Positions 3,344-57,761 of a stretch of DNA of 64,000 nucleotides are shown here, piece after piece. A program made the translations under genes and the position numbers. Location: contig JACPGT010000005.1 of NCBI GenBank assembly GCA_016188965.1, forward strand, positions 65,989-129,988, in the 5' to 3' direction. Numbering within the stretch: the stretch's first letter is position 1; each line of letters starts with the position of its first letter. The notes beneath the pieces were generated by a model. The model worked only from the letters and a program-made list of their open reading frames with translations. It did no database searches and was not told the DNA's origin. This DNA comes from Candidatus Micrarchaeota archaeon. GTDB taxonomy: Archaea; Micrarchaeota; Micrarchaeia; Norongarragalinales; Norongarragalinaceae.

Positions 3344-3432
3344 CCTGCCGCGGAAAGGCCGCCCAAAGCTTTTAAAACCGGCCTCCGTTAGCTTTTCATC
3401 CTAATCATAGGAACACAGGAGGGAAAAACTTC

Positions 3433-3756
3433 ATGAAACGCGGTCAAGGAACTTTTGAATACGTCCTGCTGCTGGGCGGCGTGCTGCTCATCGTCGTGCT
3501 GGCCATCGTCGTGCTCCAGAACACGGCACAACAGAGTTTCCAAGGCACCGGGCAACAACAGTGTAGTGCCCGCCTGCTGACGGAACTGACGTGCCAGAAC
3601 AGCAACCCCAGCGACGCCAACCGCTGGAACGAATGCTCCCAGGTCAACGCCACGACGTACCCCTGCGCACCCGTGGTTGGCCCCGTCGCCCCATGCGCCG
3701 GAGTGGCTCCCGCAACCGGCATGGCGTACTGCGGTACCAAGCCCTTGAGCGGCTAA
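3433..3756 (+). CDS. Class III signal peptide pilin (Cys-containing globular part)
   Basis: MKRGQGTFEYVLLLGGVLLIVVLAIVVL. GGAGG lies 9-13 nt upstream, a TTTTAAAA box at about 3369, and a T-rich terminator region follows after 3760. Confidence 0.75.
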   Translation: MKRGQGTFEYVLLLGGVLLIVVLAIVVLQNTAQQSFQGTGQQQCSARLLTELTCQNSNPSDANRWNECSQVNATTYPCAPVVGPVAPCAGVAPATGMAYCGTKPLSG

Positions 3757-3868
3757 GGAACAACCCTTAGCCCCATTTTTTTCTTTTTCTTCCCTTTTCT
3801 TTTCCGATTTTTTTCTTTACCCAGCGTCAAGCCTACGTGGGAAAAACGTAACGGGAAGAAGCCAAGGC

Positions 3869-5392
3869 TTAGAACGGCACGACGATTCCTTTTTGCTTCA
3901 ACGCGTCCCGGAACTCACCCATGATTGCATCCAGGCCGGACTGCGTCTTGGACTCGAAACGCAGCGAAATCTTGGCTTCCGAATTCGACGCGCGCACCAG
4001 TCCCCAGCCATCGGAAAACAAGACTTTCGCGCCGTCAAGCTGAAGCACCTCGTGTCGGGCCTTGAAACCGTCGGCGAGCTGCCGGACTACGTCGAACTTG
4101 CGCTCGTCCGGTACGTCCAGGCGATACTCGCGCGACGAGACGTATTTCGGCAATGAGGCGACTTGGTTGGACAGCGCGCCGGATTCGCGGATGATTTCCA
4201 GCACCTGGCGCGCCGCGTACAGCGACTCGGACAGCCACGGCTGCGCGCCGTCCAGGAAGAAAAAGTGCCCGGACATCTCGCCGGCCAACCTGGCGTCCTT
4301 CGAAAAGAGCACGTCTTCGATGAGCGTGCGGCCCGTGGGCGACCACACCGCGGTTCCGCCCAACGCCTTGATTTCATCTTCCACGGCCTGCGAGCACTTG
4401 ATTTCCACGATGACGCGCTCGGACGGATTGCGTGCAAGGAAGCGTCGGGAAAAAAGGACGAGCAGTTGGTCCGGCGCCACGATGCGGCCTTTTTCGTCCA
4501 CGGCACCCACGCGGTCACCGTCGCCGTCGAACATCAGACCCACGTGCGCCCGATGCGTCAGGACCGCGGCTGACAAGTCCGTATAGTTGTCCGGGTCCGC
4601 TGGGTCCGGCAAATGCACGGCAAACGGCTTGGACGCGTCGCAGTGCAGTTCGATCACGTCAACGCCCAAGGAGCGGAACAAAACGGGAGCGAAGAGCGAC
4701 GAGACGCCGTTGCCGCAGTCCAGCACAACCCGGATGCCGGATAAATCCGGCGCGCCTTGACGCAAAGCATCCAGGTATACGGCGCGGATGTCGCGCGATT
4801 CAAGAGTGCCAGCGCCGGAGGAAAAACGGTCCTGGATGGCCAGATCGCGCACGCGCCGCACATGCTCGCCGCCGGCGCTCTTGCCGTCGTACGTGAACTT
4901 GACGCCGTTGTACTTCGGCGGGTTGTGCGACGCCGTGATGGCCGCCCCGCCGGTGGTCTTGAGGAAAGAATTGGCAAAGTAGATTTCCGGAGTGGTGCAC
5001 ACGCCGATGTCCGTCACGTCGCAACCCACGGCCTGCAGGCCTCGGATGAATGCGTCGGCATAGGCCGGGGAAGACGGGCGGTTGTCGCGTCCCACCACGC
5101 AGGAAGATTTCGAGCCGGAGCGTTCCTGAAGGTATGAACCGAAGGCCTGGCCAATGCGAAAATATACGGAGTCGTCCAGGTCCTGGCCCACGTAGCCGCG
5201 CACGTCGTACTCGCGGAAGATGCCCGGCGGAACCGCAGGGGGGAGCGACCCCCCTTCAGTTTCACGGTTATCACAAATCCGGATGGATTTGTGTGAGCCA
5301 CACAATTTCCCGCTGGAAATTGTGCTGTCCTCCGGATTCCCCCCCAACGAGCGCGGTGAATTGGATTGTGGATTTACTCGAATTTCAGGCAT
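3869..5392 (-). CDS. Phosphoglucomutase/phosphomannomutase-family phosphohexomutase
   Basis: Active-site TASHNPPKYNGVKF, Mg site FDGDGDRVG, and a conserved N-terminus beginning at GIFREYDVRG. The first ~55 codons overlap hairpin repeats, so the true start is uncertain. Confidence 0.85.
   Translation of the reverse strand: MPEIRVNPQSNSPRSLGGNPEDSTISSGKLCGSHKSIRICDNRETEGGSLPPAVPPGIFREYDVRGYVGQDLDDSVYFRIGQAFGSYLQERSGSKSSCVVGRDNRPSSPAYADAFIRGLQAVGCDVTDIGVCTTPEIYFANSFLKTTGGAAITASHNPPKYNGVKFTYDGKSAGGEHVRRVRDLAIQDRFSSGAGTLESRDIRAVYLDALRQGAPDLSGIRVVLDCGNGVSSLFAPVLFRSLGVDVIELHCDASKPFAVHLPDPADPDNYTDLSAAVLTHRAHVGLMFDGDGDRVGAVDEKGRIVAPDQLLVLFSRRFLARNPSERVIVEIKCSQAVEDEIKALGGTAVWSPTGRTLIEDVLFSKDARLAGEMSGHFFFLDGAQPWLSESLYAARQVLEIIRESGALSNQVASLPKYVSSREYRLDVPDERKFDVVRQLADGFKARHEVLQLDGAKVLFSDGWGLVRASNSEAKISLRFESKTQSGLDAIMGEFRDALKQKGIVVPF
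5237..5328 (-). repeat. Partial hairpin repeat (three hairpins related to the inner modules of copy C)
   Basis: CACAAATCC-GGAT-GGATTTGTG and CCACACAATTTCC-CGCT-GGAAATTGTGCTGT parallel CACATAAGTTC-AACG-GAACTTGTG and CCACACAAATTGC-CGAA-GCAATTTGTGCTGT of copy C. A GGGGGG-AGCGA-CCCCCC hairpin is also present. Confidence 0.65.
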
Positions 5393-10197: not shown

Positions 10198-10605
10198 CTA
10201 AAGAAGTTTCAATTCTTCCGCCAACGCGTGCGTGCTCCAGACGCGGATGCGCGGCTGCCTGAAGTGACGGTCGTGCGTCCAGATATCCGCACCCACGGAC
10301 AGAGCGCAGGCGATGTAGACCTGGTCCTTTTCGTCCGCAATCAGATGTTCGGACGGAGTACGATAGGGTTCCAGCTCTTCCAATTCGACGAATTTAATGC
10401 GTCGGAGGAAACGGCTGACCATTTGCTTCACGTCATCAGGGCTTTCACGGCTACGCTGGCATAATTCGGAAAAGTACTTGAAAAATTCATCCAACAGGAA
10501 GGAAGGCGCGTACAACTCCAAGTCCCGGTTGAACAATATCCGGCGGGTGAGTCCGTCACGCAAAAAAGCCGAGTACAGGACGTTGGCGTCAACGACGAGC
10601 TTCAC
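10198..10605 (-). CDS. vapC: PIN-domain toxin (VapC-like)
   Basis: VKLVVDANVLYSAFL with conserved acidic residues. I chose the GTG at 10605 because GGAGG lies 6 nt upstream. Overlaps the upstream antitoxin gene. Confidence 0.75.
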   Translation of the reverse strand: MKLVVDANVLYSAFLRDGLTRRILFNRDLELYAPSFLLDEFFKYFSELCQRSRESPDDVKQMVSRFLRRIKFVELEELEPYRTPSEHLIADEKDQVYIACALSVGADIWTHDRHFRQPRIRVWSTHALAEELKLL

Positions 10606-31261: not shown

Positions 31262-31828
31262 GTGAAGCCTTGCGAGGGGATTTCTCGCATGCTGGTCGAC
31301 TTCACGCTCTGGACATACCTATTGATTCTGGCCGCCGGAATCCTCGGAACGCTGCTGGCCTTCTTGCGGCCCTCGCGCGACACGCTGAAGCACGCCCTAC
31401 TTTTGGGCGCGTTCCTGGCCGTCTTCGACTTCATCTTTGAGAACGCCGGCGCCATGGCCGGGTTGTGGTACTCCCAAGGCGCACCCATCTACCTCTGGGC
31501 CGTTCCCTACCAGGTCTTCTTCATCGCCCTGTTCGCCGGCATGGCCTTCCACGTCGTCTTGCCGGCGCGCAAAGACATGCTGTACATCATGGCCACGTCG
31601 CTTCTGATCGCTGCCATCGGCACCGGCATCGAATCCATCCTCTTGGACCACGGCTTACTCACGTACGCCGGTGGCTGGACCAGCACGCATGCCGTCATGG
31701 CTTACTGGGCCACGTTCATGCTTTTGCACTTGGTCAACCTCAAACTATCGGGTCACCGCGTCCTGCATGACAACGGCCAAACGAAAGCCCATAAAGCCGG
31801 CGCGCTGATCAAGAAGAAGCGGCGCTAA
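31262..31828 (+). CDS. Hypothetical polytopic membrane protein
   Basis: Four to five hydrophobic helices and a CTTTAAAA box at about 31243. Possible starts are the GTG at 31262 or the ATG at 31289. Confidence 0.5.
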   Translation: MKPCEGISRMLVDFTLWTYLLILAAGILGTLLAFLRPSRDTLKHALLLGAFLAVFDFIFENAGAMAGLWYSQGAPIYLWAVPYQVFFIALFAGMAFHVVLPARKDMLYIMATSLLIAAIGTGIESILLDHGLLTYAGGWTSTHAVMAYWATFMLLHLVNLKLSGHRVLHDNGQTKAHKAGALIKKKRR

Positions 31829-31864
31829 GGCATCAAAAAAGCAAACGTTAGCGACCGGCATTAC

Positions 31865-32070
31865 TTACAGCAAACCAAGAAAGTAACCCGACTCAATACT
31901 CCTGGTTTCTTGCAAATCTCCACGATTTGCAAGGTCTTGCGGGTTGCGATCCGCAAGGCCACATAAGTTCAACGGAACTTGTGATGCCACACAAATTGCC
32001 GAAGCAATTTGTGCTGTGCGGCCTATCAAGACCGACTTAATCGTCGTGAAATTTGTCAGTCTTGCTATAG
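31865..32070 (-). repeat. Modular hairpin repeat element, copy C (expanded, six hairpins)
   Basis: The reverse complement starts CTATAGCAAGACTGAC... and ends ...CTTGGTTTGCTGTAAG. Four extra hairpins are inserted between the two found in copy A. Confidence 0.8.
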
Positions 32071-32123
32071 CGCAGCGCGCGGGCTTACGACCAGTAGCCA
32101 CCGGCCCGTTCGTTACTACGACA

Positions 32124-33116
32124 CTACCACTGCAACGATCCGCCAGTCTGATACTCGGTGACGCGCGTCTCGAAAAAGTTCTTCTCTTTCGGCAAATCCG
32201 TCGTTTGGCTCATCCAGGGGAACGGATTCTCGCGGTTGTACACCTTCGGCAAATTCAAGCGCTGGAGGCGGCGGTCGGCGATGTGCTCGACGTACTTCTT
32301 GAACTCCTTGGCGTTGATGCCCAACAAACCCTGCGGGCAGGCGTCGTCCGCGTAATTCTGCTCGAGGATCACGGCCTTCTTGATCAAGTCCACCACTTCG
32401 TCCTGGAATTCCTGCGTCCAGACCTGCGGAAACTCCGCCTTGATGGTGTTGATCAAATCGCAGCCGAACGCCAAATGCAGCGATTCGTCGCGCATGATGT
32501 ACTCGAACTGCTCGCCCACGCCGATCATCTTGCCCTGCCGCTTCAAAGCCAGCATCATGGCAAAGCCGGCGTAAAAGAAGATGCCTTCCATGATGACGTA
32601 AAAGCCGATGAGGTCGCGGAGGAACTTCTGGATGTTCTCGTTGCCGTTCGTCGAAAAATGCGGGTCGAAGATGGATGAGGTCAGTTGCACCACGAAGTCG
32701 TCCTTCATCTTGATCGACGGGATGGACTGGTACATCGTGTAGATCTCCTCGGGGTCCAGGCCAAGGGAATCACAGCAATAGATGAACGTATCCGTATGCA
32801 CCGCTTCCTCGTATGCTTGCCGCAAGAGGTACTGGCGGGACTCTGGGTTGGACACGTGGTTGTAGACGGCCAGTACGATGTTGTTCGCCGTCAGGCTTTC
32901 GGCCGTCGAGAAGAAGCCGAGGTTCCATAGGATCATGCGCCGCTCGGACTCCGAAAGCACCGCCGGATTCTTCCACTGCTCGACGTCCTTCTGCATGGAC
33001 ACTTCCTCGGGCGTCCAATTGTTCGCCACGCCGGCCTTGTAGTGCTCACGCGCCCAGAGATACGTCATGGGCAGGATCTTGTTCGGATCGGTCTTGGGGT
33101 TGTTGATGATGCTCAT
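32124..33116 (-). CDS. nrdB: Class I ribonucleotide reductase beta subunit (R2)
   Basis: Di-iron ligand blocks EEAVH, EGIFFYAGF and RDESLHLAF. Lies immediately downstream of nrdA. Confidence 0.9.
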   Translation of the reverse strand: MSIINNPKTDPNKILPMTYLWAREHYKAGVANNWTPEEVSMQKDVEQWKNPAVLSESERRMILWNLGFFSTAESLTANNIVLAVYNHVSNPESRQYLLRQAYEEAVHTDTFIYCCDSLGLDPEEIYTMYQSIPSIKMKDDFVVQLTSSIFDPHFSTNGNENIQKFLRDLIGFYVIMEGIFFYAGFAMMLALKRQGKMIGVGEQFEYIMRDESLHLAFGCDLINTIKAEFPQVWTQEFQDEVVDLIKKAVILEQNYADDACPQGLLGINAKEFKKYVEHIADRRLQRLNLPKVYNRENPFPWMSQTTDLPKEKNFFETRVTEYQTGGSLQW

Positions 33117-33136: not shown

Positions 33137-36022
33137 CTATTGACAGGCCTCGCACGTCGGGTCGTCAATCAAGCACACTTTCGGCCCGGATGACGCCATG
33201 CTGCTGGAAGGCGCCGCCGCGGCCTGCGCCACCGCCGCTTCGGCAATCGCCTGCGCCGTCGGAGCGGATGCGGCGACGGCGTCCTGCGTGCGTTTCTGCG
33301 TGAAGCCGAACTTCTCGGCATCCAGCGTCGACTTTTCGATCTGGCTGGCCGCCAAACTACGCAAGTAATACGTCGTCTTCAAACCGAGCAGCCACGCGTA
33401 GGCGTACACGTCGTTCAGGCGCTTGCCCGAGAGGCCCTTCAGAAAGACGTTCAGGCTTTGGCTCTGGTCAATCCACTTGCCGCGGTAGGCCGCCATCTTG
33501 ACCATGGTCTCGGCATCCACGTCGAAGGCTTCCTTGTACTTGGCCTTGAGTTTCTCCGGAACGCCCGGAACCGCTGCGACGTTGCCGTCGTGGTACTTCA
33601 TCTGTTCCAGCATCTCCTGGCCCCACAAGCCCAGCTTCTTGAGGTCGTCGATAAGGTACGAGTTGACCACCGTGAACTCGCCGGAGATGTTGGCCTTGAC
33701 GTACATGTTCTTGTAAATGGGCTCGATGGACGGGTAGCAACCGGAGATGTTCGAAATCGTAGCCGTGGGCGCGATGGCCATGGTGTTGCTGTTGCGCATG
33801 CCGAACTGCCGTACGTGCGCGCGCACCGGCGTCCAATCCAAGCGGGCCGTGCGAGGCACGTCGATCTTCAAGCCACGTTCTTTTTCCAGCAAGTCGACCG
33901 TGTCGACCGGAAAGAGTCCGCGATCCCACTTGGAGCCCGGGTACGTCTCGTACGGTCCACGCTCTTTGGCCAGTTCCGACGAAGACAGGATGGCGTAGTA
34001 CGACACCAACTCCATGCTGTAATCGGCGAACTCCAGCGCCTCAAGCGAGTCGAACGCGTAATCCATCTTGAAAAGCGCGTCCTGGAACCCCATGATACCC
34101 AGGCCGATCGGGCGGTGGCGCATGTTCGATGTTTTGGCCTCCAGCGTAGGGTAGTAGTTGACGTCTACCACGTTGTCCAGCATCCGGATGGCACAACGCA
34201 CCGTCTGCGCCAGCAGCTCGGCATCCAGTTTACCGTCCACGATGTGACGTTCGAGGTTGACCGAGCCTAAGTTGCACACCGCCGTCTCCTCGGCCGACGT
34301 GTTCAGCGTGATTTCCGTGCAGAGGTTCGAGCTGTGCACCACGCCCACATGGTCCTGCGGCGAGCGCACGTTGCAGGGATCCTTGAACGTGATCCACGGA
34401 TGGCCCGTCTCGAAAAGCGACGTCAGCATCTTGCGCCACAGCTTCTGGGCCGAAACGAGTTTGTGCTTCTTCATCGAGCCGGCACGCGCCCGCTCCTCGT
34501 ACTCTTCGTACTTCGTCTCGAAAGCGCGGCCGTACAAATGGTGCAGTTCAGGCACTTCCTCCGGCGAGAACAACGTCCAGGACTCGTCCTTCAGCACGCG
34601 CTTCATGAATAAATCAGGAATCCAATTGGCCGTGTTCATGTCATGCGTGCGCCGGCGCTCATCGCCGGTGTTCTTGCGCAAATCCAAAAAGTCCTCGATG
34701 TCCAAATGCCACGTCTCGAGGTACGCGCACGTGGCGCCGCGGCGTTTTCCGCTGCGGTTGATGGCCACCGTCACGTCGTTGGCGATCTTGAGGAAGGGGA
34801 TGACGCCCTGGCTTTCCACGCCCGTGCTCTTGATCCACGAGCCGGTGGCGCGGATGTTGCTCCAGTCGTTGCCCAATCCACCGGACCATTTCGACAATTG
34901 GGCGTTGTCGCCGATGCACTTGAAGATGTGCGTCAAGTCATCCGTGACCGTGGTCAAATAGCAGGACGACAGTTGCGGGTGCGCCGTACCGGAGTGGAAG
35001 AGCGTCGGCGTGGACGGCACGAAGCGCAAACTGGAAATCATCTCGTAGAATTCCAGGGCGCGCGCCGTGCGGTCGCCTTCCTCGTTGAGGCACAAACCCA
35101 TGGCTACGCGCATCCAGAACGACTGGGGCAGTTCGCGGCGTTGCTCGTCCCACTTCATGAGGTACCGGTCGTACAACGTCTGGATGCCCATGTAACGGAA
35201 CAGCGAGTCGCGCTCAAGCAGGAGGCCTTCCGAAAGCGACTTTAGGTCGAACTCCAGCAACCGCTCGTCCAGGGTGCCTTGCTTGACGCCGGCTTGGATG
35301 TTGCGCACGAACGACTCGCGGTACGCCACTTGTTGCAACCGCTCGTCCCGCAGCGACTGACCGCAGACTTCCTTGTAGAGCTTCTGCAAAAAGAGACGGG
35401 CCGAAACGAAGTCAAACCCGGGATCCTTCTCGATAAAAGCGATGGACGCCAAGACCATGGCTTTTTCAATTTCTTCCGTGCTCACGCCGTCGTAGATGTT
35501 CTTGACCACTTCGTTGATGACGGCATCCAAAGGCACGCCGGAAAACTCGCGCGAATGCCGCTCCAAGGTACCGCGCACCTTCTGCACGTCGAACAGGACC
35601 AGGCGACCGTCACGCTTGCGCACCGTCAACTTGCCCAAAAGCGACTTCTCGACGTTGCGCTTCTTCTCCTCCTCGCGTTCCTTCTGGCGCTTGGCACGGT
35701 ACAGGATGTACGCCTTGGCCACTTCATAGTGGCCGGCCTTGACCAAATGCTTCTCGACGATATCCTGGATGTTCTCCACGTTCGGATAGAAATCGATAAA
35801 GCGCGTTTGGACCTCACCGACGACGTCCTCCGTAAGCCGCTCCGCCGCCGCGGCCGGCAGGGGCGAACCGGAAGCGATGACGGCCTTGGCCACGGCGTTC
35901 TGGATGCGGCTGGCGTCGAACGGGACCACTTCGCCGTTGCGCTTGCACACCATTAATTTGCCATCCATATCCGCCGCCTCCCGTTTTTCCAAGAAATCCA
36001 AATCCCTTTGCTCTTTTTGCAA
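33137..36022 (-). CDS. nrdA: Class I ribonucleotide reductase alpha subunit with two ATP-cone domains
   Basis: ATP-cones VCKRNGEVVPFD and VRKRDGRLVLFD, the catalytic SSNLCTEI motif and a C-terminal CEAC pair. An alternative start exists at 35968. Confidence 0.9.
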   Translation of the reverse strand: MQKEQRDLDFLEKREAADMDGKLMVCKRNGEVVPFDASRIQNAVAKAVIASGSPLPAAAAERLTEDVVGEVQTRFIDFYPNVENIQDIVEKHLVKAGHYEVAKAYILYRAKRQKEREEEKKRNVEKSLLGKLTVRKRDGRLVLFDVQKVRGTLERHSREFSGVPLDAVINEVVKNIYDGVSTEEIEKAMVLASIAFIEKDPGFDFVSARLFLQKLYKEVCGQSLRDERLQQVAYRESFVRNIQAGVKQGTLDERLLEFDLKSLSEGLLLERDSLFRYMGIQTLYDRYLMKWDEQRRELPQSFWMRVAMGLCLNEEGDRTARALEFYEMISSLRFVPSTPTLFHSGTAHPQLSSCYLTTVTDDLTHIFKCIGDNAQLSKWSGGLGNDWSNIRATGSWIKSTGVESQGVIPFLKIANDVTVAINRSGKRRGATCAYLETWHLDIEDFLDLRKNTGDERRRTHDMNTANWIPDLFMKRVLKDESWTLFSPEEVPELHHLYGRAFETKYEEYEERARAGSMKKHKLVSAQKLWRKMLTSLFETGHPWITFKDPCNVRSPQDHVGVVHSSNLCTEITLNTSAEETAVCNLGSVNLERHIVDGKLDAELLAQTVRCAIRMLDNVVDVNYYPTLEAKTSNMRHRPIGLGIMGFQDALFKMDYAFDSLEALEFADYSMELVSYYAILSSSELAKERGPYETYPGSKWDRGLFPVDTVDLLEKERGLKIDVPRTARLDWTPVRAHVRQFGMRNSNTMAIAPTATISNISGCYPSIEPIYKNMYVKANISGEFTVVNSYLIDDLKKLGLWGQEMLEQMKYHDGNVAAVPGVPEKLKAKYKEAFDVDAETMVKMAAYRGKWIDQSQSLNVFLKGLSGKRLNDVYAYAWLLGLKTTYYLRSLAASQIEKSTLDAEKFGFTQKRTQDAVAASAPTAQAIAEAAVAQAAAAPSSSMASSGPKVCLIDDPTCEACQ

Positions 36023-49587: not shown

Positions 49588-49701
49588 GCCGCAGTAGCTC
49601 AGCCTGATCGCCGCAAATCTGTTTTTCTAGTTTACGGCGAGGCTTAGGAGAGCAATCGGCTGAAGACCGATATGCCGGGTGTTCAAATCACCCCTGCGGC
49701 A
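49588..49701 (+). tRNA. tRNA-Phe (GAA) with ~41-nt intron in the D-loop
   Basis: GCCGCAG TA GCTC AGCCTG[intron]GA GAGC A ATCGG CTGAAGA CCGAT ATGCC GGGTG TTCAAAT CACCC CTGCGGC A. The intron forms the TCGCCG/CGGCGA helix. A TTTAAATT box lies 30 nt upstream and a T-run follows downstream. Confidence 0.8.
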
Positions 49702-50243: not shown

Positions 50244-50341
50244 CTATAGCAAGACCGGCAAATTTCACGACGATTAGGCCGGTCTTGCTAGACACCAAAC
50301 CAAGACTATTTTGTCGGGTTACTTTCTTGGTTTGCTGTAAA
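50244..50341 (+). repeat. Modular hairpin repeat element, copy A (two hairpins)
   Basis: CTATAGCAAG-ACCGGC-loop-GCCGGT-CTTGCTAGACACC-AAACCAAG-loop(GTCGGGTTACTTTC)-CTTGGTTT-GCTGTAAA. Ends 13 nt before the start codon at 50355. Confidence 0.8.
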
Positions 50342-50354
50342 GGGGGTTTCGTGC

Positions 50355-50807
50355 ATGCGCACATTGGTTTACACTTTATTGGTCCTCGGTTTTCTCTTGG
50401 CAGGGTGCAGCACCCAACTGGCCCAACCGACGCCTGAACCAACCAGCCCGGCCGCAACCGCGAGCGCGACGGCCGAAACAAACACGAACGCCAACGCGGC
50501 CAACCCCGCTGCGACGCACTGCGTACAACTCGGGTACAGAAACGAAATCGTCGACACGCCGCAAGGCCAAAGCGGCACCTGCCGGTTTCCGGACAACTCC
50601 ACCTGCGACGACTGGAAGTTTTTCCGAGGAGAATGCGGCCAGGCGTTCAGTGCCTGCACGAAAAAGGGAGGAAAACTGGGCGCGGTCCTGATGGGACCGA
50701 ACGGGCCGGTGACGTCCAATTCGACGTGCCAATTCAACGACGGCACCATATGCGAAGAAAACGAGCTTGCCGACGGCACGTGCCAACCTGGACAACAAGT
50801 CGCATGA
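50355..50807 (+). CDS. Lipobox protein with two DUF333-like Cys-rich repeats
   Basis: LLAGC lipobox. NPAATHCVQLGY...GTCRFPDNSTCDDWKFFRGEC resembles the DUF333 pattern, and a second degenerate repeat follows. Confidence 0.7.
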   Translation: MRTLVYTLLVLGFLLAGCSTQLAQPTPEPTSPAATASATAETNTNANAANPAATHCVQLGYRNEIVDTPQGQSGTCRFPDNSTCDDWKFFRGECGQAFSACTKKGGKLGAVLMGPNGPVTSNSTCQFNDGTICEENELADGTCQPGQQVA

Positions 50808-50941
50808 ACGCCCAGCCGACATCCGAGCCACTTTAAAACCCGAACAGCCGAAGGCTGCACGCCGACGTAGGACCAATTTTTTCCGCTTCTTTTTGCGGCG
50901 TCCGTAAAGCGCCGCAGTCGTTATTCTCCTTTTTTCATTGG

Positions 50942-53900
50942 TCAGCGGTCCAGCCGGAAAAAAGTGATGGAGTACGCCGGGAAAACGTAAGAAAAATTGG
51001 CCGAAACAGCGAGGGTGGATTCAAGGTAGTCCGTCTGGTCAATAGAGTCCTGCAACGCGTTGGCCTTCAAAGCGTATACGGAAGCGACGGGCAAAGGAAT
51101 GAAGTTTTTCAGCTGAATGGTTTGAACATGCGCCGCCGAGTCACGGTTGATAACCGCCAAGTACAACGACTGGCCGTCGGCCGAGACGCTGCTGACGGCG
51201 GTGAAGCGCGGCACGTCCGTGTTCGTCACGGCGTCATGGACCGTCAGCGAGTCGTACGCGACCGGCACCATGCGGCCACCCCAGCCAAAGTAGCGGGAAA
51301 ACGCCAGGAACGTCCGGCCATTGAGGTTGACCTTGGGCACGCCGGCGTAGTCGCCCACCAAGCCGGTGGCGAATTTTTCCTTGGGAGACGCGGCATTCCA
51401 GAAGAACAGCGACCCACCGTGCACTCCGTTTTCCAGCATGAACGCCAGCTCGGACGCCAAGTAAGCCGAGTCGATGAATCGGTCCGTTGCCGTGTACTTG
51501 AAATTGACCAGGATACGGTTGTACTCGTTGATCCAGATGGGAAAATCCGGATCGCCCACCGCGCGGCTAAGGTACTTCGAAGCCAACTGCTGCGCCTGCC
51601 GGAACCGGTACGAATCGGCATAGGCGGCGGCCATGGAACGCAACGGATAGTCCCGCACGCCGTCCTTGCCCGGATAGAGAAAATAATCGTGCACCGCCAT
51701 GCCCGCGACGAGGGACTGTTTGCCTTGCTCCGCGATGTACTGCAGAACGCGGTCCATGGAAAACGAGCCGGAGTTCTGCGTAGGCAAGATGCATTTGAGG
51801 CCGGTTTGGATGCGGCGGATGGACTCGCACAAGTCGACGAACCGGCGCGCGAAGCCCTCCTCGTTACCGACGTACTGCGCGTAGTACGGCTCGTTACCCA
51901 ACTCGACGTACCGCAACGAATACGGCGCCACGCGGCCCCGGGCAGCACGAAGGTTGGCATAGTTGACGCTACCGGAACCGTCCGCGGCCCGCAGATCCGT
52001 CACGGGCCAGCCCTGCGCAGTAATTTGCTGGGCCTTTGCCGCATAGTCCGCGTCCGCCGGCAACACGAGGTACTGGATCATGGCCGTGAGGCCTTCCACG
52101 CTTCCGTACTTGCGGAAAGAAGGAGGCAACGCATCGGTGGAGCAGCCGTACTTGATTTCGCAAGGATTCGGCAACTGGGGAACGAACTCGAAGTTGAGGC
52201 GCTCAGCAAGCGTGCCGTAATCATCCAGCGTCAGCACGTTGGCATCGAACCGGTACCGAACCTGTGCGTCGGCCGCATCCTGTGGCAGCGCGCCGGAATA
52301 CGTCGGACGCACCACGTACTCGTCGATCTTGAAGCGGTACGAGTCGGAACGTTGGCTAGCCGACGTGACCGATGCGCCCACGCTCTCTTCGTTCAGCGTG
52401 CCGAAGTAGGCATCTTTGGTGCGCAGCGCCGTGTCCGACGGGAACGTCGCGAGCACCGCCTGACCAACAAAGTTATCGTCCAGCCAGACTTTAGACGTCA
52501 AGTCGTTGAGAACGTCCACCCCATACCACCGGTCGAACGCCAGCGGCGCCGTCGTTACGGATTGAGCGAACCCCGGCGTGCCGAAGCGGAATTCCAGGCG
52601 GCGGTCCGGCAACAAATAAACGTGGAAGCGGCCGGTCTTCATGATGAACGCCTTGGATGCCACCGAAAAAGGCACGCTCGAAGAAAGCTGGATGTCAAAA
52701 CGCGTGTACAACGCCGCCTGGGGAAGCGAAAGTTCGCGACCGACTTCAGGAAACACGCGGTGAACCTGCGTCGTCGAGCCTGACACCTTAGTGTAGCTGA
52801 TCGAGTGCCGGTTGAGCCCTTGAGCAAAGGAAAGCGACGCGTCGAACCACTCCACACGGTAATAATTATCGCTGGCCGAGCCGTCGGCCTTGGATTCATA
52901 CCTCAAATCCATGTCCGGCAGCGGATATTGCAGTCGCCAGTTGAACTCCGGGAACGATTCATCGATCATCGGATTGGAAAGGCCGTTGGACCGCCGATAC
53001 TCCGACGGATCGAACATCCAGATGTTGCGCGGCGTGCCTGCGTCGGCCAGATGCATCCGCCACAGCGGCCGGTTCAGCGATGCGCCGGAAGGAACGGATG
53101 AGCCTGCCAATTCGGAAAAAATGGGAAAATCGTAATCCTGCACGCGGTCGGCCATCGAATTGCCGCCCAGCACGCCACGGTCCACATACGGCACCGACGT
53201 CTGTTGCGCGTCAATCAAAAGAACGCCGGCAATCGGGACCGGTGTCGCGCTCGGCGCGGCCGTTGCAGAAGGACGAGGCATTGGGCTGACGGACGGCAAT
53301 ACCGTGGGCAACGGAGGCATTACGGAAGGGACCGGAGGCAACAGCGGATACCAAGTGAAGTTTGCGTTGCGCGCATGCTCCAGTGCGAACGGGGCATAGA
53401 AGCCCGAACCGGGCCCGCCGCGGCACGAGCCGTCGGACCAACCCGGTTGTTTGATCCACACCAAGGCGTGCACGGAATCGTCGCCGGTCTGCGTCGTGAA
53501 CGGAACGCCGGCGCCGCGGCCCGACGGGTTGCACCAGATCCCGTCCGGATGCGGGCCTTGGCCGTTGCGCGACGTGTCGATGATGAACGGCTTGCCGCCC
53601 ACGCGGGCGGACATCTGCAAGCCGTACCGGATATTCTCATCCGTGTAGATGAAGTTAGCCACGTTCAAGGCAAAACCATCGGCTTCCGAAATGTCCAACT
53701 CGTTCAAACGCCGCGACATCTCGACCACGCCCACCCACCGCGGGTTGGCCGCGTCCACATACACGGCCGCGCCTTGGGCCTTGAGCACGCGGATGGCGTG
53801 GCGCATCAAGTCCCACCGCGTGGCAACCTCCGACGCATTCAGGCAACTGAGCGCCGCCGTGCCGTCCGGTTCCAACACCACGATGGCCTTGCGTCCGGCA

Positions 53901-54637
53901 AGGCTCGAAGCGATGCCTTCCACGTAAGCGCGGTATGCCGCCGGCGAGGCGAAGCCGCCGGCTGCCGCACCGCCGCAATCCCGCTTGGGCAAGCTATAAA
54001 TCACGATGAGCGGCACCTGGCCCTGCGTCGAAGCGTCGTCCAGAAGCGAATCGGCCCGCGCCCGCACGTCCGCCTCGTGTCCGGAAAACCAGATGGCCAC
54101 CGGTTGCGGCCACAGCTTGTCCAACTGCGCCGCATCCTCCGGACGGCTTTGGCGCCACGCGTCGGCCTGAAGACGGGTCGGAATCTGCGGGTCGACATAC
54201 AGACGGACGTTGGAAAAAGGATTGAACCGATCCGGTGCGGGCGTCACGCTGGGAGACGCAGAAGCCGTAGGTTCCGGCGCAGGCACCACGGAAGGCGCGG
54301 ACAGCGGAGGCGAAAGAGGGGCCGTCGGCGAGGCCGAGGATGAGGAAGCGGAAGGATAGGCTCCCCCGATGAACGACGGCGCGGGGGAAGGGGGCACAGA
54401 GGAAGCGGAGGGCGACACCGGCAACGGGACGTCCGTATCCGAAGACGGCGGATACGCCAGGGCGGTGGCGTCAGCCAAGGGCAGCACCTCGAATTCCGCA
54501 ATCGGAGTCGGAGTAACGAGGGACTGCGGAAAGACGACAAACCCGGCGGGGGATGCCGGAGTCAACGTCAGCCACAAACCAAGAAGCGCGATGCCGACGG
54601 CGAAGATCAACAACGCTTGACGATGACTCGGACGCAT
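50942..54637 (-). CDS. Secreted multidomain glycoside hydrolase: GH6 domain plus C-terminal clan GH-A-like (beta/alpha)8 domain
   Basis: Start at 54637, with GGAGGT 8 nt upstream. A signal/TM and P/S/T linker are followed by GH6 blocks PLIVIYSLPKRDCGGAAAGG, IVVLEPDG, IIDTSRNG and WIKQPGWSDG. The C-terminal region has YVELGNEPY and PIWINEYN, the acid/base and nucleophile motifs typical of clan GH-A. Confidence 0.85.
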   Translation of the reverse strand: MRPSHRQALLIFAVGIALLGLWLTLTPASPAGFVVFPQSLVTPTPIAEFEVLPLADATALAYPPSSDTDVPLPVSPSASSVPPSPAPSFIGGAYPSASSSSASPTAPLSPPLSAPSVVPAPEPTASASPSVTPAPDRFNPFSNVRLYVDPQIPTRLQADAWRQSRPEDAAQLDKLWPQPVAIWFSGHEADVRARADSLLDDASTQGQVPLIVIYSLPKRDCGGAAAGGFASPAAYRAYVEGIASSLAGRKAIVVLEPDGTAALSCLNASEVATRWDLMRHAIRVLKAQGAAVYVDAANPRWVGVVEMSRRLNELDISEADGFALNVANFIYTDENIRYGLQMSARVGGKPFIIDTSRNGQGPHPDGIWCNPSGRGAGVPFTTQTGDDSVHALVWIKQPGWSDGSCRGGPGSGFYAPFALEHARNANFTWYPLLPPVPSVMPPLPTVLPSVSPMPRPSATAAPSATPVPIAGVLLIDAQQTSVPYVDRGVLGGNSMADRVQDYDFPIFSELAGSSVPSGASLNRPLWRMHLADAGTPRNIWMFDPSEYRRSNGLSNPMIDESFPEFNWRLQYPLPDMDLRYESKADGSASDNYYRVEWFDASLSFAQGLNRHSISYTKVSGSTTQVHRVFPEVGRELSLPQAALYTRFDIQLSSSVPFSVASKAFIMKTGRFHVYLLPDRRLEFRFGTPGFAQSVTTAPLAFDRWYGVDVLNDLTSKVWLDDNFVGQAVLATFPSDTALRTKDAYFGTLNEESVGASVTSASQRSDSYRFKIDEYVVRPTYSGALPQDAADAQVRYRFDANVLTLDDYGTLAERLNFEFVPQLPNPCEIKYGCSTDALPPSFRKYGSVEGLTAMIQYLVLPADADYAAKAQQITAQGWPVTDLRAADGSGSVNYANLRAARGRVAPYSLRYVELGNEPYYAQYVGNEEGFARRFVDLCESIRRIQTGLKCILPTQNSGSFSMDRVLQYIAEQGKQSLVAGMAVHDYFLYPGKDGVRDYPLRSMAAAYADSYRFRQAQQLASKYLSRAVGDPDFPIWINEYNRILVNFKYTATDRFIDSAYLASELAFMLENGVHGGSLFFWNAASPKEKFATGLVGDYAGVPKVNLNGRTFLAFSRYFGWGGRMVPVAYDSLTVHDAVTNTDVPRFTAVSSVSADGQSLYLAVINRDSAAHVQTIQLKNFIPLPVASVYALKANALQDSIDQTDYLESTLAVSANFSYVFPAYSITFFRLDR

Positions 54638-54695
54638 GACGCCAAACCTCCACGACGAGGAAAAAAGCATCCGGCGGGCCGCATGCTGCCTGCGG

Positions 54696-54791
54696 TTATA
54701 GTCGACCACGAAAGTAACCCGACTTAAGAGTCGTGGTCGACTATCTAGCAAACGGCTCGAAAGTCTCGGCGGACTTTCGAGGTTTGCTATA
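54696..54791 (-). repeat. Modular hairpin repeat element, copy D
   Basis: The reverse complement reads TTATAGCAAAC-CTCGAAAGTC-loop-GACTTTCGAG-CC-GTTTGCTAGATAGTC-GACCACGA-loop(GTCGGGTTACTTT)-TCGTGGTC-GACTATAA. Lies 58 nt upstream of the glycosidase start. Confidence 0.75.
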
Positions 54792-54925
54792 ATCGACTGG
54801 ATGATTCAATGCCCCAACGGCAGTGGTGGCTGGAGCGGCTAATATTAAACCGGACGGCACGCCTTACGAAAACCAGTCGAAAAAACGGATGCGCTTACAA
54901 AAACGGACAAAAAAAAGAAAAGAAG

Positions 54926-54996
54926 TGCGACCGGCGGGAATCGAACCCGCGTATCGACCTTGGCAAGGTCGTATCATACCACTAGACCACGGTCGC
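54926..54996 (-). tRNA. tRNA-Gly (GCC)
   Basis: The reverse complement folds as GCGACCG TG GTCT AGTGGTA TGAT A CGACC TTGCCAA GGTCG ATAC GCGGG TTCGATT CCCGC CGGTCGC A. Confidence 0.9.
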
Positions 54997-55281: not shown

Positions 55282-55377
55282 CTATAGCAAGCCACGAAAG
55301 TTTCCCGGATGTATTCGTGGCTTGCTAGACACCAAGACTTGACAAATCGATTGCGACAGTTCAAGTCTTGCTGTAAA
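55282..55377 (+). repeat. Modular hairpin repeat element, copy B (two hairpins)
   Basis: Same scaffold as copy A with different, perfectly compensated stems (CCACGA/TCGTGG and AAGACTTGA/TCAAGTCTT). Confidence 0.8.
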
Positions 55378-56149: not shown

Positions 56150-56279
56150 CTTCCATCACCTCCATTGGTCGTTGTTCCTCTTTGCCACGTTTCATCAATG
56201 AGATTTGAAAAAGCAAAAAGAAAGAAAGGGTCCGCCGACCCTGTTTGGATCGGCGGATTGGTCGGTTCCACGTCCTCCA

Positions 56280-57761
56280 CTATGCTCCGGGCGACGGACT
56301 CGGCGTGGCCGTTGGCTCGGGCGTCGGAGTCGCGGTCGGCTCCGGAGTGGGAGTCGCCGTAGGTTCCGGCGTTGGAGTCGGCGTCACCGTCGGCACAGGC
56401 GTCGGGCTGGCCGTCGGTTCCGGACTCGGAGTAGCCGTGGGAGCCGGTGTCGGCGTTGCGCTGGGAGTGGCCGCAGGCGTCGCAGTCGGCGTAGCCGTTG
56501 GTTCCGGCGTGGCTTCCTGACCTTCCGTCTCGACGTCCACGCTCACGCTGTTGTTGACAGTGGCCGAAGCGGTGCCGTTCAACGAGTCCACGAAGGCGTT
56601 GACCATCGTATTGATGTCTACGATGATCTGCGTCAGAGCGTCTCCGGATTCCGCACTCACCGACACGTCCGTACCGGTCGTGGCGCTGGCCGAACCGTTG
56701 TCCCCGCTGGCCGCGGCCGCGGCGTCACTGGACGCATCGACCGAGGCTGACGAGCCGCCGTTGGCGCTGGCCTCGACGTCGACCGACGTGTCAGCCGTTG
56801 CCGTGGCGGTGCCGTTCAACGCATTGACGATGGCCTGGACGAAGGTGTTGATATTGACGATGATGGTCGTCAAACCACCTTCTTCAGGTTCCGGCGTCGC
56901 ACTGGGAGTGGCCGTGGGCTCCGGACTCGGAGTAGCCGTCGGCTCCGGCGTCGCACTGGGCGTCGCTGTTGGTGTCGCAGACGGGGTAGCCGTCGGCGTG
57001 GCCGTCGGTTGGTTGGCCTCCGCTTGGGCCAATGCCTGCAGCAGCACGTTCAACTGCAACGTCAGCTGCTCCACCTGGGCCTGCAACTGGGCTACGGCCG
57101 TGGCCTTCGCATTGGAGTCGTCCGTCGCATTGACACCCGCTTGGGCCATGGCGTTCTGCTTAGCCAACAGGAAGAGCTTGACCTTGTCGCCGAAGTTCTT
57201 CCAGTAAATCTTCATGTCGGAAGTGACCTGGGCACGCGCGTCCGCATCCCCGGCCTCGACGAAGGCCTGGGCCTGCGAGTCCAATTTGATGCGGGCGTCC
57301 GCAATCATCTGCGGGTCCACGCCTTGGTCTTCCAGATCGTTCAGCATCACCTTGAGTTTGATGAACTCACGGGCGCTGGCCGACGCACTGGCTTCGCCGT
57401 TGCCGCTGGCCGAAGCTTGTGCATCCGTCTGAGCATTCACGGATTCTTTAATCGTTGCGTCGTCCGATTGCGCGTTGACGTCCACCGACGTGTCGCTGGA
57501 AACGGCCGCGTTAGCTGACGCGTCGCCGCCCAGAGCACTGGCCGTCGCGTTCACCACGCTACTGATGAACACCTGTATCTTCAGTACGACGTCACTCAAG
57601 GTACTGGTAACGCCGTCGATGACGACGTTTACGCTGGTATCCGCACTGGCCTGACTTGAGGCTTGCGAAACGGTCGCCGTTGTCTCGGCAACAAGCAAGC
57701 CCGACATCATGACCAGCGCCAGCATACCTAACCATGCCGTATTCGGCGCTGGTGTATTCAT
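56280..57761 (-). CDS. Secreted S/T/A-rich protein with TPEPTATP linkers and internal repeats
   Basis: A signal/TM segment. The block FIKLKVMLNDLEDQGVDPQMIADARIKLDSQAQAFVEAGDADARAQVTSDMKIYWKNFGDKV is homologous to the downstream gene. Three IIV-x-INT-x-V-x-A-x-V-x-x-LNGTA repeats and two T/P/E/A linker arrays. Confidence 0.65.
   Translation of the reverse strand: MNTPAPNTAWLGMLALVMMSGLLVAETTATVSQASSQASADTSVNVVIDGVTSTLSDVVLKIQVFISSVVNATASALGGDASANAAVSSDTSVDVNAQSDDATIKESVNAQTDAQASASGNGEASASASAREFIKLKVMLNDLEDQGVDPQMIADARIKLDSQAQAFVEAGDADARAQVTSDMKIYWKNFGDKVKLFLLAKQNAMAQAGVNATDDSNAKATAVAQLQAQVEQLTLQLNVLLQALAQAEANQPTATPTATPSATPTATPSATPEPTATPSPEPTATPSATPEPEEGGLTTIIVNINTFVQAIVNALNGTATATADTSVDVEASANGGSSASVDASSDAAAAASGDNGSASATTGTDVSVSAESGDALTQIIVDINTMVNAFVDSLNGTASATVNNSVSVDVETEGQEATPEPTATPTATPAATPSATPTPAPTATPSPEPTASPTPVPTVTPTPTPEPTATPTPEPTATPTPEPTATPSPSPGA

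Follow-up and report, generated by a model that had tools for sequence, protein, structure and literature searches.

Correia elements of Neisseria (CREE/NEMIS) are bacterial repeats of fixed length (100-155 bp) that carry 26-bp repeats and a constant number of hairpins. In the BOX elements of Streptococcus pneumoniae a single unit, copied in tandem, makes up the internal modules. Most catalogued repeat families like the one described here are bacterial. MITEs are documented in archaea, where 44 of them were described in 30 genomes (PMC3852290). REPs are palindromes of 20-40 nt with loops of 4-5 nt and a GTAG or CGTC tag at the end; their dimers are usually head-to-head, and a survey reported REP families only from bacterial phyla (PMC3733652).

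We analysed an expanded six-hairpin repeat, copy B, in the spacer downstream of nrdB within a 64-kb stretch of DNA (the whole of which is referred to as the window). It is likely that copy B is a member of a family of small mobile DNA elements that code for no protein, namely MITE-like palindromic repeats of uncultured archaea near Candidatus Micrarchaeota MAGs, and that it carries a nested module. Our literature searches turned up no account of a family like this from Micrarchaeota or any other DPANN archaea. With the TA-duplicating prokaryotic MITEs (derivatives of IS630/Tc1-mariner) the family shares small size, lack of coding capacity, terminal inverted repeats, TA ends, dispersed and mostly intergenic copies, presence/absence polymorphism and nesting. 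It differs from them in having no known parent IS, in the shortness of its inverted repeat (8-16 bp), in being built entirely of hairpin units with fully compensated stem variation, and in hosting a second module that has no inverted ends. The likeness to Correia elements lies in the palindromic structure, intergenic position, TATAG ends, apparent insertion at TA, probable co-transcription with neighbouring genes and promoter-like ends that an element can bring. Yet the 26-bp inverted repeat is absent, and nothing beyond its first five bases, TATAG, is shared, so that membership in the Correia elements was rejected. BOX elements are similar in having terminal modules, a variable number of internal modules and stable multi-hairpin structures, whereas their sequence is unrelated, their host is different, and the block described below is an ordered set of four different hairpins. 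REP, REPIN and BIME repeats are likewise composed of hairpin units, mostly head-to-head, in mosaics of variable unit number; they too occupy 3' UTRs and spacers, and their spread is likewise one of DNA (PMC3733652, PMC3116915, PMC2817692). Unlike them, the present family has larger units and loops, TA flanks and an archaeal host, and no RAYT gene was seen near its copies. Membership in REPs or REPINs was also rejected, since the hairpin ends carry no GTAG or CGTC and a YGTC motif lies inside the loops instead.

Structure of the six-hairpin copy

According to the original prediction, copy B keeps the terminal modules of copy A, with both loops, and has four extra hairpins inserted between them. 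All six hairpins and both loops are present as written on the minus strand (Table 1). Once the insert is removed, copy B aligns to copy A without internal gaps at 87% identity, and the terminal modules are thus indeed retained. The four extra hairpins are present as well; however, they are not separate additions between the two terminal hairpins but one contiguous insert in the base of hairpin 2. Since copy B without 32017-31909 aligns gap-free internally to the 95-nt A-type copies, the insert is a single 109-nt block. The flanks of the whole element read gcgcTA[TAGCAAG...TTGCTG]TAagt. A covariance model of the core hairpin (R1) recognises hairpin 2 with 58.5 bits (E 4e-12), and hairpin 1 is a diverged, inverted version of the same core hairpin. 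The window contains two occurrences of the 17-nt hairpin-1 loop, where chance predicts 0.12 (0 of 100 shuffles), and three of the 14-nt core of the hairpin-2 loop, where it predicts 0.48 (1 of 100 shuffles). Relative to shuffled sequence, the folding z-scores of copy B are -4.8 for the minus and -6.7 for the plus strand. The GC content of the element is 46% and that of the window 59%; a 78-aa ORF that spans copy B is a by-product.

Table 1. Coordinates of the repeat copies, their parts and the genes around copy B in the window
Feature	Position	Strand	Remarks
Copy B, whole expanded element	31865..32070	-	read directly from the sequence; body 32067-31868
TA dinucleotides flanking copy B	32069-32068 and 31867-31866	-	read from the sequence
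Hairpin 1 (A-type) of copy B	32024..32067	-	TAGCAAGACTGAC / loop AAATTTCACGACGATTAA / GTCGGTCTTGATA
Nested four-hairpin block, 109 nt	31909..32017	-	ACAGCACAA...TTGCAAG; in 5' arm of hairpin 2, between GC and AAAC
Cassette 1 of copy B	31987..32018	-	CACAGCACAAATTGC-TTCG-GCAATTTGTGTGG
Cassette 2 of copy B	31960..31983	-	CACAAGTTC-CGTT-GAACTTATGTG; single C·A mismatch
Cassette 3 of copy B	31936..31957	-	CTTGCGG-ATCGCAAC-CCGCAAG
Cassette 4 of copy B	31909..31933	-	CTTGCAAATC-GTGGA-GATTTGCAAG
Hairpin 2 (core hairpin) of copy B	31872..31908	-	AAACCAGGA / loop GTATTGAGTCGGGTTACTT / TCTTGGTTT
Copy A	50245..50339	+	two-hairpin A-type; 15 nt upstream of ATG of DUF333 lipoprotein gene
Copy C	54697..54791	-	two-hairpin C-type; between tRNA-Gly and GH6 gene
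Copy D	55283..55375	+	two-hairpin; variant hairpin-2 loop CAAATCGATTGCGACAGT
Two cassette hairpins of the same kind	5272..5324	-	CACAATTTCC.., CACAAATCC.., linker TGGCTCA; outside any TATAGCAA element
nrdB, ribonucleotide reductase small subunit	32124..33116	-	Pfam Ribonuc_red_sm, E 1e-88
nrdA	33137-36022	-	Pfam
Convergent ORF, 188 aa	31262..31828	+	no Pfam match; orthologous ORFs in L032 and L040
T6 tract	31835..31840	-	25 nt past copy B; candidate archaeal terminator of nrdAB

Composition and distribution of the family

The window holds four copies of the family, A, B, C and D, the last of which lies beyond those first noted. The hairpins are therefore not unrelated terminator stems without similar sequence elsewhere, because copies recur both in the window and outside it. 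The basic unit is one hairpin with a stem of 14-16 bp and a loop of about 19 nt, the ends of which form the inverted repeat TATAGCAA...TTGCTATA. This terminal repeat is found in nearly all copies and reaches 16 bp in L011, which together with L010 represents the smallest copies, a single 49-nt hairpin (tTATAGCAAtcccgga-CTATTTTGTCGGGTTACTT-tccgggaTTGCTATAAa). Copies range from 49 to 247 nt, with length differences that are not multiples of three, and contain 1, 2, 4, 6 or 7 hairpins. This variation, together with the recurrence of the cassette block elsewhere, bears out the proposal that the family is modular and that cassettes are gained and lost. Tandem and nested copies also exist: in L042 the GCTAGA linker of one copy has a further hairpin unit at its TA, and in L051 two elements share one TA. 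An alignment of the core hairpin (n=11) has changes on both sides in 7 of its 14 stem pairs, 95% of the cells pair, and no shuffle reaches the observed covariation score. In two-hairpin copies the core-hairpin model gives its best match to hairpin 1 on the opposite strand. It follows that two diverged units, joined head to head, make up the usual 95-nt element, and most copies of the family are pairs of this kind.

An exact-pattern scan of 185,579 species genomes revealed real copies only in two MAGs deposited as Micrarchaeota; the remaining matches lacked the hairpin and were mostly due to chance. A scan of metagenomes added about 20 distinct copies on contigs that include groundwater-metagenome records. 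Viral contigs gave 82 exact 14-mer matches, none of them with the hairpin. A hairpin census of about 307 kb detected further family members with different loops. Because the loop itself had served as the search pattern and the members found by the census carry other loops, the near-invariance of the loop in our collection is partly an artefact of the search. Loops differ between subfamilies, and a YGTC core is common to many of them. In Rfam 15 the whole window had no match at the gathering score, the second repeat described below had no match, and the sole match at E<=10 over 31780-32140 was PYLIS_3 with 11 bits, a chance hit.

Two arrangements of copies around genes are worth pointing out. 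Copies A and C face each other at 50245-54791 across the DUF333 lipoprotein gene and a gene for a 1231-aa GH6 protein; the adjoining tRNA-Gly (54925-54996, minus strand) separates this region from copy D on its far side. It has the appearance of an acquired island with the repeat at its borders. A search for GH6 orthologues was meant to compare the insertion sites of copies A, C and D, and in the protein collection neither the lipoprotein nor the GH6 protein had a close orthologue (best identity 43%). In L019 (3215-4103) a four-hairpin expanded copy and a two-hairpin copy in opposite orientation flank a single methyltransferase gene (3423-4028), a layout that resembles a composite transposon.

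A second module nested at a fixed point

The block enters copy B at a single point, between ..CCGC and AAACC.., and this GC^AAAC point is common to other copies. The full block recurs in L042 in reverse orientation, inside hairpin 1, at the mirror-image position GTTT^GC, and in L064 outside any element with TATAGCAA ends. Shortened blocks were found in L049, L068, L046 (7104-7253), L042 (10251-10400) and the window itself (5272-5324), and the same block with two, three or four cassettes is present in at least six other copies. The order of cassettes and their linkers is constant: [CACAA-1] TGGCAK [CACAA-2] (TG)GC [CTTG-3] AC [CTTGCAA-4]. Between copies, nearly all changes in the stems are Watson-Crick-compensated, the exceptions being single mismatches, while the loops vary freely. 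The nested block has neither inverted ends nor an accompanying duplication. A different pair of cassettes occupies nearly the same insertion point in L019 and L055. Here one palindromic module nests within another at a fixed point, and the family offers a clean example of such nesting. The block is found precisely at GC^AAAC in either hairpin of the host element, and also in a tRNA-like duplication and in another repeat. One may speculate that it represents a second, undescribed mobile module, and that palindromic DNA in DPANN archaea acquires ordered hairpin sets by a site-specific, structure-guided mechanism, for instance through template switching at hairpins or the action of an HUH nuclease, but we consider this idea rather doubtful.

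The other repeat that hosts cassettes has the ends GGGGGGGAATCCGGAGGA...CGTGAAACTGAAGGGGGGTCGCTCCCCCCTGCGGTTCCG. Its copy in the window (5230-5345, minus strand) carries two cassette hairpins and lies within the ORF 3869-5392, and two more copies are present in L064. In the window it is in frame and free of stops in the 5' part of this phosphomannomutase-like ORF (GIFREYDVRG), the sole upstream start of which is the ATG at 5392. In L064 (3990-4440) direct repeats of a tRNA-like 3' end (GGGGGTTCAAATCCCCCCTCCTCCA plus the GGGGAAAC hairpin) bracket at least six cassette hairpins. The second of these tRNA-like repeats resembles a T-arm split by an intron-like insert, and ARAGORN reported no tRNA there.

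Insertion at TA dinucleotides

Evidence for mobility comes from a pair of alleles. At one locus L042 carries an expanded 147-nt copy (10253-10399) where L052 has none; the left flanks are 99.7% identical and the right flanks only 94%, and as the two alleles come from two metagenomes, they fit insertion and precise excision alike. The empty junction is gatgagttTAacgta (gagttTAacg, L052), and the filled one reads gatgagttTA[TAGCGAC...CGACTA]TAacgta (L042). Of about 30 copies, nearly all have TA on either side, mostly in the form T|TA...TA|A, and identical 95-nt copies (L047 and L058) occupy two sites of contig Ga0209726_10000318. Judging from these junctions, the family element inserts at a TA dinucleotide (context T-TA-A) and has TA at both ends. 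It is small and non-coding, has terminal inverted repeats, shows TA at the empty and the filled site, and occurs in dispersed as well as identical copies; with every defining feature tested thus present, it appears to work like a MITE with TA duplication. A putative transposase acting in trans would move the element, and the TA duplication suggests that this may be an IS630/Tc1-like DDE enzyme. No transposase or autonomous element with TATAGCAA ends was found in about 300 kb of related sequence, the neighbours of the copies included, and no long element with these ends on both sides turned up when it was looked for. The flanking TA could also be the element's own, which speaks against this form of the mobile-element reading: insertion would then take place 3' of a TA without duplication, as in single-strand transposition of the IS200/IS605 type.

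The nrdB spacer offers a further comparison. Pfam matches and the ORF context agree with the predicted position of copy B downstream of nrdB, between convergent genes, and 37 nt separate it from the end of the convergent ORF. The prediction had called for comparison of orthologous loci. In L032, the closest relative at this locus (NrdB 95% identical), the distance between anchors is 399 nt, whereas it is 601 nt in the window; the shortfall of about 202 nt equals the length of copy B, and without copy B the spacer measures 92 nt in the window against 90 nt in L032. The core-hairpin model, run with filters off, found nothing significant in the nrdB spacers of L040 (38 nt), L032, L035-37 and L038, so that none of these four related spacers has a copy. 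These comparisons indicate that copy B stems from the insertion of an A-type pair of 95 nt into the spacer 3' of nrdB. A 9-nt stretch in an element-free nrdB spacer (GGGTTACTT in L033, 1602-1610 / GGGGTTACTTT in L032) matches the core of the hairpin-2 loop with an E value of 9.5 and may be either chance or a relic. In L035 (10994-11115), L036, L037 and L038 (7736-7900), a hairpin (GAGCAATCTCC..GGGGATTGC) comes after nrdB, and behind it lies a synonymously diverged second copy of the last ~60 nt of nrdB (KNFFETRVTEYQTGGSLQW*). This arrangement resembles a scar left by integration into the gene's 3' end.

The T6 tract is the sole oligo-T on the nrdB-sense strand of the spacer. Since copy B lies between the nrdB stop and this tract, it is probably co-transcribed within the nrdAB 3' UTR. 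There its hairpins could at most slow read-through or, as REP and BOX elements suggest by analogy, exonucleolytic decay from the 3' end. The likely effect on nrdAB is small, amounting to a longer and highly structured 3' UTR, and the presence of copy B at this locus could be explained without a dedicated function.

Alternative explanations

The question is whether the family could instead be maintained as RNA, either as a small RNA or as a modular element of 3' or 5' UTRs, with its hairpins and conserved loop bound by a protein or another RNA. The covariation in half of the core-hairpin stem pairs, which no shuffle equals, the 19-nt loop that is nearly alike in copies A, B and C despite their different stems, folding far more stable than that of shuffled sequence, and the location of several copies just upstream of start codons all agree with such a functional structured RNA. 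However, compensated stems are equally expected of palindromic DNA. Moreover, if the element functioned as RNA, G·U pairs should be tolerated on just one strand, and we counted 31 predicted G·U pairs on the forward and 38 on the reverse strand, with equal folding energies on both (23 copies in 20 sequences; 22 of the copies are distinct). The copies have no fixed orientation towards genes: in spacers between tandem genes seven copies are co-oriented and four are antisense to both neighbours by our gene calls, and others follow stop codons or lie between divergent genes. The adjoining genes are mutually unrelated (methyltransferase, aminotransferase, DUF373 protein, lipoprotein, GH6 enzyme, nrdB), and no gene context is common to the copies. 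The lack of G·U asymmetry, the variable orientation and the unrelated neighbours together point to DNA-level spread and not to a dedicated RNA. Hairpin units that take either orientation within an element, the copy that is polymorphic for presence with a clean TA junction, and the lack of a matching Rfam family argue in the same direction, and we consider a functional RNA quite unlikely. For the same reasons of orientation and neighbourhood the element is not simply a 5' leader, as had been anticipated, and a cis-regulatory leader or riboswitch was rejected. Even less credible, and in our view highly improbable, is a bidirectional terminator or insulator between nrdAB and the convergent gene that is selected at its site. 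The convergent setting of copy B would suit it, as would the plus-strand gene, which has no T run of four or more within 31800-32140. Archaeal termination, however, depends on oligo-T tracts and not on hairpins, the T6 tract in the nrdB sense lies outside copy B, relatives have nrdB spacers of 38-90 nt without the element, and elsewhere the family is also found upstream of genes and between tandem genes.

If the spread is at the DNA level, the mechanism might differ from that of a MITE. Here, a REP/REPIN-like system deserves attention: an HUH tyrosine transposase of the RAYT or IS200/IS605 type would recognise single-stranded DNA hairpins and insert them 3' of TA without duplication, and the head-to-head pairs would be REPINs. 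The mostly head-to-head units, the usual type of REP dimer (PMC3733652), the perfect palindromic stems and the subfamily-specific loops, many with a YGTC core, are consistent with this explanation, and so are the L042/L052 junctions if one TA is derived from the element. Nonetheless, the GTAG or CGTC tag is missing from the hairpin ends, and units of 47-49 nt with loops of 15-19 nt exceed the 20-40 nt and 4-5 nt of REPs, which in addition come only from bacterial phyla in the survey (PMC3733652). No tyrosine transposase was seen beside any copy among the neighbours examined, and on a given strand the paired hairpins show complementary, not identical, loops. On balance, we regard a REP/REPIN-like origin as unlikely and prefer the MITE-like reading.

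Several other candidates were tried. The element ends in TATAAAA exactly 30 nt before an ATG in L011, L020 and L049, and start codons in these genomes are preceded by an AT-rich peak at -31 to -24. In a minority of copies the element may therefore supply a TATA-like box, or may target one. A promoter role of the family was rejected, since only 3 of about 12 co-oriented copies fit and insertion into TA-rich promoter boxes explains the TATAAAA spacing equally well. Kissing of loops 1 and 2 was discarded because only 3-5 bp can pair and these are unconserved. Inspection of the sequences also dismissed integron attC sites, CRISPR, C/D or H/ACA RNA and bacterial intrinsic terminators on account of absent core motifs, mixed orientations and the archaeal host. 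As MITE-like DNA, the family would be a marker of recent genome change in uncultured archaea with small genomes, and it would account for unusual spacers with several hairpins, which might otherwise be taken for regulatory RNAs. The element should be of interest to specialists in mobile DNA and does not constitute a new kind of regulator.

Host genome and other features of the window

MAGs deposited as Candidatus Micrarchaeota are the genomes nearest to the window. Proteins encoded in the window include PCNA, a radical-SAM enzyme of wyosine formation, archaeal-type RqcH, LonB and a UpsF/ArlJ-like pilus protein. A possible tmRNA near the cassette array of L064 scored 29 bits against a threshold of 47 and was confirmed neither over a wider range nor by ARAGORN. 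PCNA and the wyosine-formation enzyme, together with the unconfirmed tmRNA, exclude a bacterial host. The host being an archaeon, bacterial promoter and terminator rules do not apply.

Two further features of the window lie apart from the repeat family. At 49590-49700 (plus strand) Rfam detects a partial tRNA (49639-49694, 35 bits) that ARAGORN missed; the stretch reads like a tRNA with anticodon GAA and an insert of about 35 nt in the region of the D-arm, which would be a non-canonical archaeal intron. At 56266-57032 a direct repeat with a 24-nt period (nine copies of a 116-nt register) lies inside the ORF 56280-57761 (minus strand), which has no Pfam match and probably encodes a repetitive protein.
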